Assembly: GCF_050320075.1 (NCBI RefSeq) | Contig: NZ_CP190018.1 | DNA length: 64,000 nt | Direction: 5' to 3' (one strand) | Origin: Escherichia coli | GTDB taxonomy: Bacteria; Pseudomonadota; Gammaproteobacteria; Enterobacterales; Enterobacteriaceae | In this document: positions 47,653 to 49,310 of the stretch, piece by piece | How positions within the stretch are numbered: the stretch's first letter is position 1 | Layout of the letters: each line of letters opens with the position of its first letter | Position numbers and translations under genes: made by a program | Notes under the pieces: model-generated | Databases searched by the model: none | What the model was told of the DNA's origin: nothing | Seen by the model: the letters and a program-made list of their open reading frames with translations, nothing else

Positions 47653-49310
47653 ATGACACGACAAAAAGCAACGCTCATAGGGCTAATAGCGATCGTCCTG
47701 TGGAGCACGATGGTAGGATTGATTCGCGGTGTCAGTGAGGGGCTCGGCCCGGTCGGCGGCGCAGCTGCTATCTATTCATTAAGCGGGCTGCTGTTAATCT
47801 TCACGGTTGGATTTCCGCGTATTCGGCAGATCCCGAAAGGCTATTTACTCGCCGGGTGTCTGTTATTCGTCAGCTATGAAATCTGTCTGGCGCTTTCCTT
47901 AGGATATGCGGCGACCCGTCATCAGGCGATTGAAGTGGGTATGGTGAACTATCTGTGGCCCAGCCTGACAATTCTCTTTGCCATTCTGTTTAATGGTCAG
48001 AAAACCAACTGGCTGATTGTACCAGGATTATTATTAGCCCTGGTTGGCGTCTGCTGGGTGTTAGGTGGTGACAATGGGTTACATTATGATGAAATCATCA
48101 ATAATATCACCACCAGCCCATTGAGTTATTTCCTGGCGTTTATTGGTGCGTTTATCGGTAATGACTCCAACTTACTGATAGTGTTTTATGTTCAGATAAT
48201 GCCCGATGACTTTGTCATGCAGCTCCACCGATTTTGAGAACGACAGTGACTTCCGTCCCAGCCTTGCCAGATGTTGTCTCAGATTCAGGTTATGTCGCTC
48301 AATGCGCTGAGTGTAACGCTTGCTGATTACGTGCAGCTTTCCCTTCAGGCGGGATTCATACAGCGGCCAGCCATCCGTCATCCATACCACGACCTCAAAG
48401 GCCGACAGCAGGCTCAGAAGACGCTCCAGTGTGGCCAGAGTGCGTTCACCGAAGACGTGCGCCACAACCGTCCTCCGTATCCTGTCATACGCGTAAAACA
48501 GCCAGCGCTGACGTGATTTAGCACCGACGTAGCCCCACTGTTCGTCCATTTCAGCGCAGACAATCACATCACTGCCCGGCTGTATGCGCGAGGTTACCGA
48601 CTGCGGCCTGAGTTTTTTAAGTGACGTAAAATCGTGTTGAGGCCAACGCCCATAATGCGGGCGGTTGCCCGGCATCCAACACCATTCATGGCCATATCAA
48701 TGATTTTCTGGTGTGTACCGGGTTGAGAAGCGGTGTAAGTGAACTGCAGTTGCCATGTTTTACGGCAGTGAGAGCAGAGATAGCGCTGATGTCCGGCAGT
48801 ACTTTTACCGTTACGCACCACGCCTTCAGTAGCTGAGCAGGAGGGACAACTGATGGAGATGGAAGCCACGGGAGCACCTCAAAAACACCATCATACACTA
48901 AATCAGTAAGTTGGCACCATTACCCGTTTATCTGGGCAGCCTACTGCACAGTAACGAATAAATACGCACGCGGATTTAACGGAATTACCGTTTTTGTCCT
49001 GCTAACGGGAGCAAGTCTGTGGGTTTACTATTTTCTCACGCCACAACCAGAAATGGTATTTAGCACGCCAGTCATGATTAAACTCATCTCTGCGGCATTT
49101 ACCTTAGGATTTGCTTATGCTGCATGGAACGTCGGTATATTACATGGCAACGTCACCATTATGGCGGTAGGTTCGTATTTTACGCCCGTCCTTTCCTCAG
49201 CGCTTGCAGCCGTGCTGCTCAGCGCCCCGCTGTCGTTCTCGTTCTGGCAAGGCGCGCTAATGGTCTGCGGCGGTTCCCTGCTCTGCTGGCTGGCGACACG
49301 TCGTGGCTAA
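47653..49310 (+). pseudogene. yddG: yddG (aromatic amino acid exporter, DMT family) interrupted by IS1
   Basis: N-terminal 168 codons (47653..48156) and C-terminal part (48925..49310) flank the IS1; 8-bp direct repeat CGTTTATC on both sides. Confidence 0.85.
48157..48924 (-). mobile_element. insAB: IS1 copy 3 (768 bp, variant isoform), insA 48594..48869 and insB 48172..48675
   Basis: Terminal repeats read directly; InsA/InsB differ at several residues from copies 1 and 2; flanked by target-site duplication. Confidence 0.95.

Follow-up and report, generated by a model that had tools for sequence, protein, structure and literature searches.

We detected a complete IS1 element within the coding sequence of yddG, the gene of the aromatic amino acid exporter, in a stretch of 64,000 nucleotides of the Escherichia coli contig NZ_CP190018.1 (assembly GCF_050320075.1), referred to here as the window. 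Judging from the comparison with intact yddG genes, this arrangement almost certainly derives from one simple transposition of an intact IS1 into the gene, and we strongly infer that yddG has very probably been inactivated by it. The yddG::IS1 allele of the window is a real and ordinary insertion that is already annotated publicly, and the event is recent and confined to one lineage. Its significance beyond the annotation of the strain is small, and the locus represents a clean textbook case of a fresh IS1 insertion.

A pattern search with both ends of IS1 located three copies of the element in the window, each of 768 bp, at positions 15484-16251 (copy 1), 37468-38235 (copy 2) and 48157-48924. 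The last of these, the copy within yddG, is on the minus strand, with its IRR-type end towards the 5' part of the gene and its IRL-type end towards the 3' part. The IRR-type end begins at 48157 with GGTAATGACTCC, and the IRL-type end closes at 48924. The IRR as a whole (48157-48179, plus strand, GGTAATGACTCCAACTTACTGAT) is an exact match common to the other two copies, while the IRL (48902-48924, minus strand, GGTAATGGTGCCAACTTACTGAT) departs at two positions from its counterpart in copies 1 and 2, which begins GGTGATGCTGCC. These two differences make the ends of the yddG IS1 more alike, with 20/23 matching positions versus 19/23 in copies 1 and 2. The promoter scan recognized a promoter-like site within the IRL (GTGCCA-16-TATGAT, 48890-48917, minus strand) directed into insA, which we take to be the position of the promoter of IS1 itself.

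The coding content of this element is also that of a complete IS1. The ORF list contains insA (48594-48869, minus strand), encoding 91 amino acids with a zinc ribbon and a helix-turn-helix domain (Pfam Zn_ribbon_InsA and HTH_Tnp_IS1), and insB' (48172-48675, minus strand) encodes the DDE catalytic domain (Pfam DDE_Tnp_IS1, E = 1.3e-74 over the full length; NCBIfam transpos_IS1). The motif TTAAAAAAC (A6C; 48612-48620, minus strand) marks the programmed -1 frameshift leading from insA to insB', and the frame of the 232-aa InsAB' fusion is open. The element thus matches the IS1A/IS1R-type IS1 of E. coli and Shigella in its length of 768 bp, its imperfect terminal inverted repeats of ca. 23 bp beginning with GGT, the presence of insA and insB' with the A6C -1 frameshift and the DDE_Tnp_IS1 domain, and a target duplication in the range of 8 or 9 bp. 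We conclude that the yddG IS1 is an intact element of the IS1 family.

As judged against the IS1A-like copies 1 and 2 in the window, the yddG IS1 is a distinct variant with an identity of 95.3% (732/768), i.e., 36 of the 768 positions differ, including the two in the IRL. The RefSeq name of its transposase is generic ('IS1 family transposase', WP_223216367.1, 'programmed frameshift'), and a look-up of the protein cluster of the variant InsB returned no exact match. Besides, copies identical to it at 768/768 positions occur at nine other sites in other genomes. Seven of these nine carry target duplications, and this isoform therefore appears to have been recently active. Its identical copies with fresh duplications at seven other sites in other genomes make it a candidate for a transposition-competent IS1.

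The 8-bp sequence CGTTTATC lies directly outside both ends of the element, with the left copy at 48149-48156 and the right copy at 48925-48932, each abutting IS1; the intact gene has it only once. This agrees with the initial annotation, which had described the third IS1 as flanked by an 8-bp direct repeat, unlike copies 1 and 2. The repeat does not extend to 9 bp, given that a G (48148) precedes the left copy and the terminal C of IS1 precedes the right one. The chance of an 8-bp match at both ends is approximately 4^-8, i.e., 1.5e-5. Copies 1 and 2, which lack a target duplication in the window, served as an internal control: their flanks are alike in 1 bp only, which indicates that a perfect 8-bp match of the flanks is not a general property of IS1 in the window.

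Target duplications of either 8 or 9 bp have been reported for IS1 (PMC12428005, PMC12903888). Among the intact copies of the isoform found in yddG, including the yddG copy, four have duplications of 8 bp and four of 9 bp, while for the IS1A-like isoform of copies 1 and 2 we found one duplication of 8 bp and four of 9 bp, with one more in a related IS1A-type element (L024). A duplication of 8 bp is thus normal for IS1. The idea that the variant isoform specifically makes 8-bp duplications, which arose from two 8-bp cases of the variant versus one 9-bp case of IS1A, was rejected with the equal split (4 of 8 bp versus 4 of 9 bp) among the eight identical copies; these counts, which are too small for the purpose, support no bias in duplication length between the isoforms.

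The insertion is framed by the two halves of one gene. Positions 47653-49310 run exactly from the ATG of yddG through its stop codon, with IS1 within. The 5' fragment (47653-48156, plus strand) is present in the ORF list and comprises codons 1-168 (504 nt / 3 = 168 codons); RefSeq considers it a pseudogene missing the C-terminus. The 3' fragment (48933-49310, plus strand), delimited with the ORF list and by comparison with the intact gene, comprises codons 169-293 and the stop codon, and has neither a start codon nor a promoter of its own, except for an internal ATG at 49053. When IS1 and one copy of CGTTTATC were removed in silico, an ORF of 882 nt and 293 codons without internal stops was obtained, whereas the removal of 9 bp in place of 8 broke the frame. 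The restored gene matches the yddG of E. coli strain 7/2, which is annotated as intact, at 880/882 nucleotides and 293/293 amino acids, and its product is WP_000198203.1, the annotated intact YddG. The expectation that the halves would rejoin into a continuous reading frame once the IS and one repeat were taken out is hence borne out. In strain 7/2, CGTTTATC is present a single time, at nt 497-504 of the gene.

The same result was obtained with an empty-site query, for which window positions 47957-48156 were joined to 48933-49132, leaving out the IS and one repeat. This sequence of 400 bp is found as a single piece, with 400/400 identity, in the intact annotated yddG of many complete E. coli genomes, so that the duplication could indeed be confirmed against an uninterrupted gene with one CGTTTATC, as had been proposed. 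Across 5,426 complete genomes of E. coli, 5,400 contain at least 80% of the empty site as one place. The flanks of the IS1 are collinear with intact yddG and exactly 776 bp (768 + 8) have been added, in line with the earlier reading of a plain insertion with both halves of yddG present.

Considering the restored protein, it is a full-length member of the YddG aromatic amino acid exporters of the DMT superfamily, with 293 amino acids, EamA domains and synteny with fdnG. It scores 471.2 bits against the NCBIfam equivalog NF008676 (cut-off 194) over residues 1-292 of 293, and its exact 293-aa sequence is found on at least 1000 contigs, recorded as YddG. In addition, its alignment with the crystal structure 5I20, a homologue and the only solved structure of the YddG family, spans the full length. 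The position of yddG (ATG at 47653, plus strand), divergent from fdnG, is kept in every genome inspected. While the known exporter gene is uninterrupted, that of the window is broken after codon 168, and a continuous ORF with both EamA halves is absent in the window as it stands, with 776 bp splitting the gene at codon 168.

Based on this structure, we conclude that the IS1 transposase cut the target with a stagger of 8 bp at CGTTTATC (yddG nt 497-504), and that repair of the gaps doubled the eight target bases; a simple transposition of this kind accounts for every feature of the locus. Subsequent rearrangement did not take place, both halves of yddG and both copies of the repeat having persisted.

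The same allele was found in E. coli YZLc1-3 (NZ_CP123240.1; chicken faeces, China), which is 100% identical to the window over 47400-49600 and has the same two junctions. YZLc1-3 is the only one of 5,426 complete genomes of the species in which both yddG::IS1 junctions occur together. RefSeq annotates this locus as a yddG pseudogene, an IS1 family transposase (WP_223216367.1) and a second yddG pseudogene (N4725_RS13040, N4725_RS13045 and N4725_RS13050), the latter missing its N-terminus and corresponding to window 48927-49310; with the two pseudogene halves and the transposase annotated, the yddG::IS1 allele was already on record. A search of the literature for a report of this allele found nothing specific. 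The YZLc1-3 record differs from the window beside IS1 copy 2, where the window is without 10.5 kb.

The same scan of 5,426 genomes also recovered the left junction in Ec-U3 (NZ_CM192149.1; human urine, Burkina Faso), a second independent assembly. In Ec-U3, the IS1 isoform and the left junction are those of the window, and flanks of 8.1 kb show 0 differences, but 607 bp by the IRL end (48931-49537) are missing, including the 3' half of yddG and the right copy of the repeat. The breakpoint of this deletion is ambiguous within a shared CGTTTA, and the ATG of the porin gene downstream is brought to 31 nt from the end of IS1. The new junction (L003 4805-4850) brings window positions 48911-48930 next to 49538-49571 and contains the promoter-like sequence TTGGCA-16-GATAAT (10/12 matches), which lies 17 nt ahead of the porin ATG. 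This arrangement points to a possible capture of the porin gene by a hybrid promoter formed from IS1 and its flank in Ec-U3.

In strain 144, IS1 also lies in yddG between flanks identical to those of the window (L004 4050-4820; window 48156-48158 and 50489), with the IRR towards the 5' part of the gene. On the other hand, its junction is at nt 506, 2 bp further in (cgtttatctg followed by GGTAGTGAC), a deletion extends into the porin gene, and the element itself is a mosaic isoform unlike the yddG variant at 24 positions. With the deeper junction and the 24 differences, we rejected a common origin with the insertion of the window. Strain 144 rather represents an independent event, nearly coincident in site and with matching orientation, which hints at a local hot spot for IS1.

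Further insertions were observed along the gene. Strains 23CRST036, 23AR0922 and L16-131 carry a plain IS1 insertion at yddG nt 381, with the IRR towards the 5' part of yddG, which differs from that of the window in its site, its isoform and its duplication of 9 bp (cagaaaacc). In further genomes, IS1 is also found just past the yddG stop codon or within the gene at nt 663 and nt 687, in these two cases with its second end linked to sequence near narU. IS1 in yddG or directly behind it is thus present in many E. coli genomes; all inspected cases (loci L002 and L029-L033) have the IRR end towards yddG, and the far end of the IS1s between yddG and narU is often joined to remnants of the leucine-rich-repeat (LRR) gene or to the region upstream of narU. 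We conclude that the interval from yddG to narU (approximately window 47653-54300) has repeatedly been a target of IS1 insertion and of deletions next to IS1, and that the window contains the undeleted first step. Together with its two sister genomes, the window illustrates a progression in which an insertion is followed by a deletion beside it and then by the possible capture of a promoter by the neighboring porin gene; this progression, seen in the sister genomes and thus outside the window, is the sole mildly interesting thread of this analysis.

A stronger version of this proposal would be that the insertion in the window is the first step of a recurrent and possibly selected remodelling of the yddG-porin-LRR-narU region by IS1, with a preference for nt 504-506 of yddG, and followed by the loss of the porin and LRR genes or, as in Ec-U3, by a hybrid promoter for the porin. 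The two independent IS1 events at nt 504-506, 2 bp apart and in one orientation, are consistent with it, yet we regard it as improbable. If true, yddG nt 504-506 would be a hot spot of IS1 with a regulatory outcome instead of a site of neutral pseudogenization.

The initial annotation correctly placed the insertion with fdnG (44374-47421, minus strand) on one side and a porin gene of the OmpC family (366 amino acids, 49569-50669) on the other, and further suggested that outward transcription from IS1 could affect these neighbors. In PMC8764528, which cites Prentki et al. 1986, the terminal repeat of IS1 is described as having an outward-facing -35 box with which hybrid promoters are possible, and these are stated there and in PMC9330008 to arise given a -10 box at the right distance. 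This background, together with the TTGGCA-16-GATAAT sequence created upstream of the porin gene by the 607-bp deletion at the same IS1 in Ec-U3, would favor a mainly regulatory role of the insertion, in which read-out from IS1 or a hybrid promoter alters the expression of the porin to the right or of fdnGHI to the left. The transposase and fdnG are also encoded on the same strand, so that read-through along the transposase strand would point at fdnG.

In the window, the suggestion of an effect on the neighbors found no support. The promoter scan recognized no hybrid promoter across either junction of the IS1 in the window, and only the inward promoter of IS1 itself at the IRL end. Where a -10 box would have to lie relative to the outward -35 boxes, the sequence reads tgggca/gggcag at the right end and caccaa/accaat at the left end, none of which is similar to TATAAT. 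Moreover, the porin ATG is 645 bp away from the end of IS1 and its native, AT-rich upstream region of 258 bp is kept intact, with several promoter-like sites, while 736 bp separate the ATG of fdnG from the IRR end. The promoter of IS1 itself is generally known to be weak and repressed by InsA, which also argues against substantial read-out. Considering all this, a mainly regulatory effect of the insertion in the window seems quite unlikely, and the simple disruption of yddG remains the preferred reading.

Some additional observations were made on these neighbors. An in-frame TGA at 46834-46836 splits fdnG into two listed ORFs, while RefSeq has a single CDS of 3048 nt; the TGA fits what we take to be the known selenocysteine codon of formate dehydrogenase-N. 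The protein cluster of the porin is named 'porin OmpC / outer membrane porin protein LC', and its 90% cluster also includes 603-aa LepA / elongation factor 4 proteins from Roseburia, probably an artefact of clustering or of the look-up. Downstream of the porin gene, at 50833-52098, there is an ORF of 421 amino acids with a GTG start and weak matches to leucine-rich-repeat effector-like proteins, the scores against the SlrP, InlJ and XopAC models being far below their cut-offs. Within this ORF, RefSeq annotates only a partial LRR pseudogene of 288 nt (window 51431-51718).

With respect to yddG itself, translation of the 5' part would continue for 26 codons into IS1 and then end. The resulting chimeric ORF of 194 amino acids (47653-48237) consists of 168 codons of yddG and 26 of IS1, with its stop at 48235-48237, and the 3' part would be separated from the promoter and the start codon of the gene. 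The break falls after residue 168 (...AFIGAFI/WAAYC...) where, in the alignment, the second half of 5I20 begins, in the stretch aligned with the first helix of the second repeat. IS1 insertions are, besides, strongly polar, and from this general knowledge of IS1 we would infer polarity on downstream transcription here as well. Since translation stops inside IS1, the 3' half lacks a promoter and a start codon, and IS1 is polar, the YddG exporter is expected to be lost.

DMT transporters consist of two homologous five-helix halves, and YddG is a 10-helix member of the DMT/EamA family. It could thus be asked whether the split gene retains function, with the 194-aa N-terminal product acting as half a transporter, by itself or in dimeric form. 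The N-terminal fragment keeps the promoter, the start codon and the first EamA repeat, and its 168-aa yddG-derived part, although extended by an IS-encoded tail, holds the first five-helix repeat, so that a residual or altered activity is conceivable. However, the break lies inside the stretch of 5I20 that aligns with the first helix of the second repeat, the C-terminal half is served by neither promoter nor start codon, and RefSeq calls both parts of yddG pseudogenes. Furthermore, relatives have deleted all of the 3' half of yddG, which suggests that this half was dispensable after the split. We therefore consider retained function very improbable, and inactivation of yddG by IS1 is the reading that we follow.

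Under inactivation, the strain is predicted to be without the YddG exporter, which could slightly change how well it tolerates aromatic amino acids or analogues of them. By analogy with Salmonella, the tolerance to methyl viologen could change as well; the analogy goes back to a Salmonella study reportedly published by Santiviago et al. in 2002.

The proposal that the yddG IS1 is one end of a larger IS1-mediated rearrangement (a composite transposon, an inversion or a deletion) could draw on the lack of target duplications at copies 1 and 2 of the window, the 10.5-kb deletion relative to NZ_CP123240.1 adjoining copy 2 and the deletions beginning at the yddG IS1 in close relatives, but it is ruled out for practical purposes by the empty-site alignment, in which the flanks are collinear with intact yddG apart from the added 776 bp and the duplication is perfect.

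Copies 1 and 2 are identical to each other, IS1A-like and mutually inverted. Copy 1 (15484-16251) has on one side a fimbrial usher gene that lacks its C-terminal part and on the other a fimbrial subunit gene that lacks its N-terminal part; it is without a target duplication, and its context looks like an IS1-adjacent deletion. The IRL end of copy 2 (37468-38235) adjoins a truncated dosC (left flank approximately 37300-37467). The window is without the region 2644522-2655065 of NZ_CP123240.1 (10.5 kb, comprising the 3' part of dosC, dosP, ddpXABCDF and osmC) beside this copy, which in NZ_CP123240.1 itself is a plain insertion with an 8-bp duplication (gaaaattc). When the 5,426 complete RefSeq genomes of E. 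coli were searched for the deletion junction at copy 2, none contained it. An inversion between copies 1 and 2 was considered but seems unlikely, as their flanks do not pair as exchanged duplications. The window also contains a tnpA of the IS200/IS605 family at 42176-42634, between yddM and fdnI.
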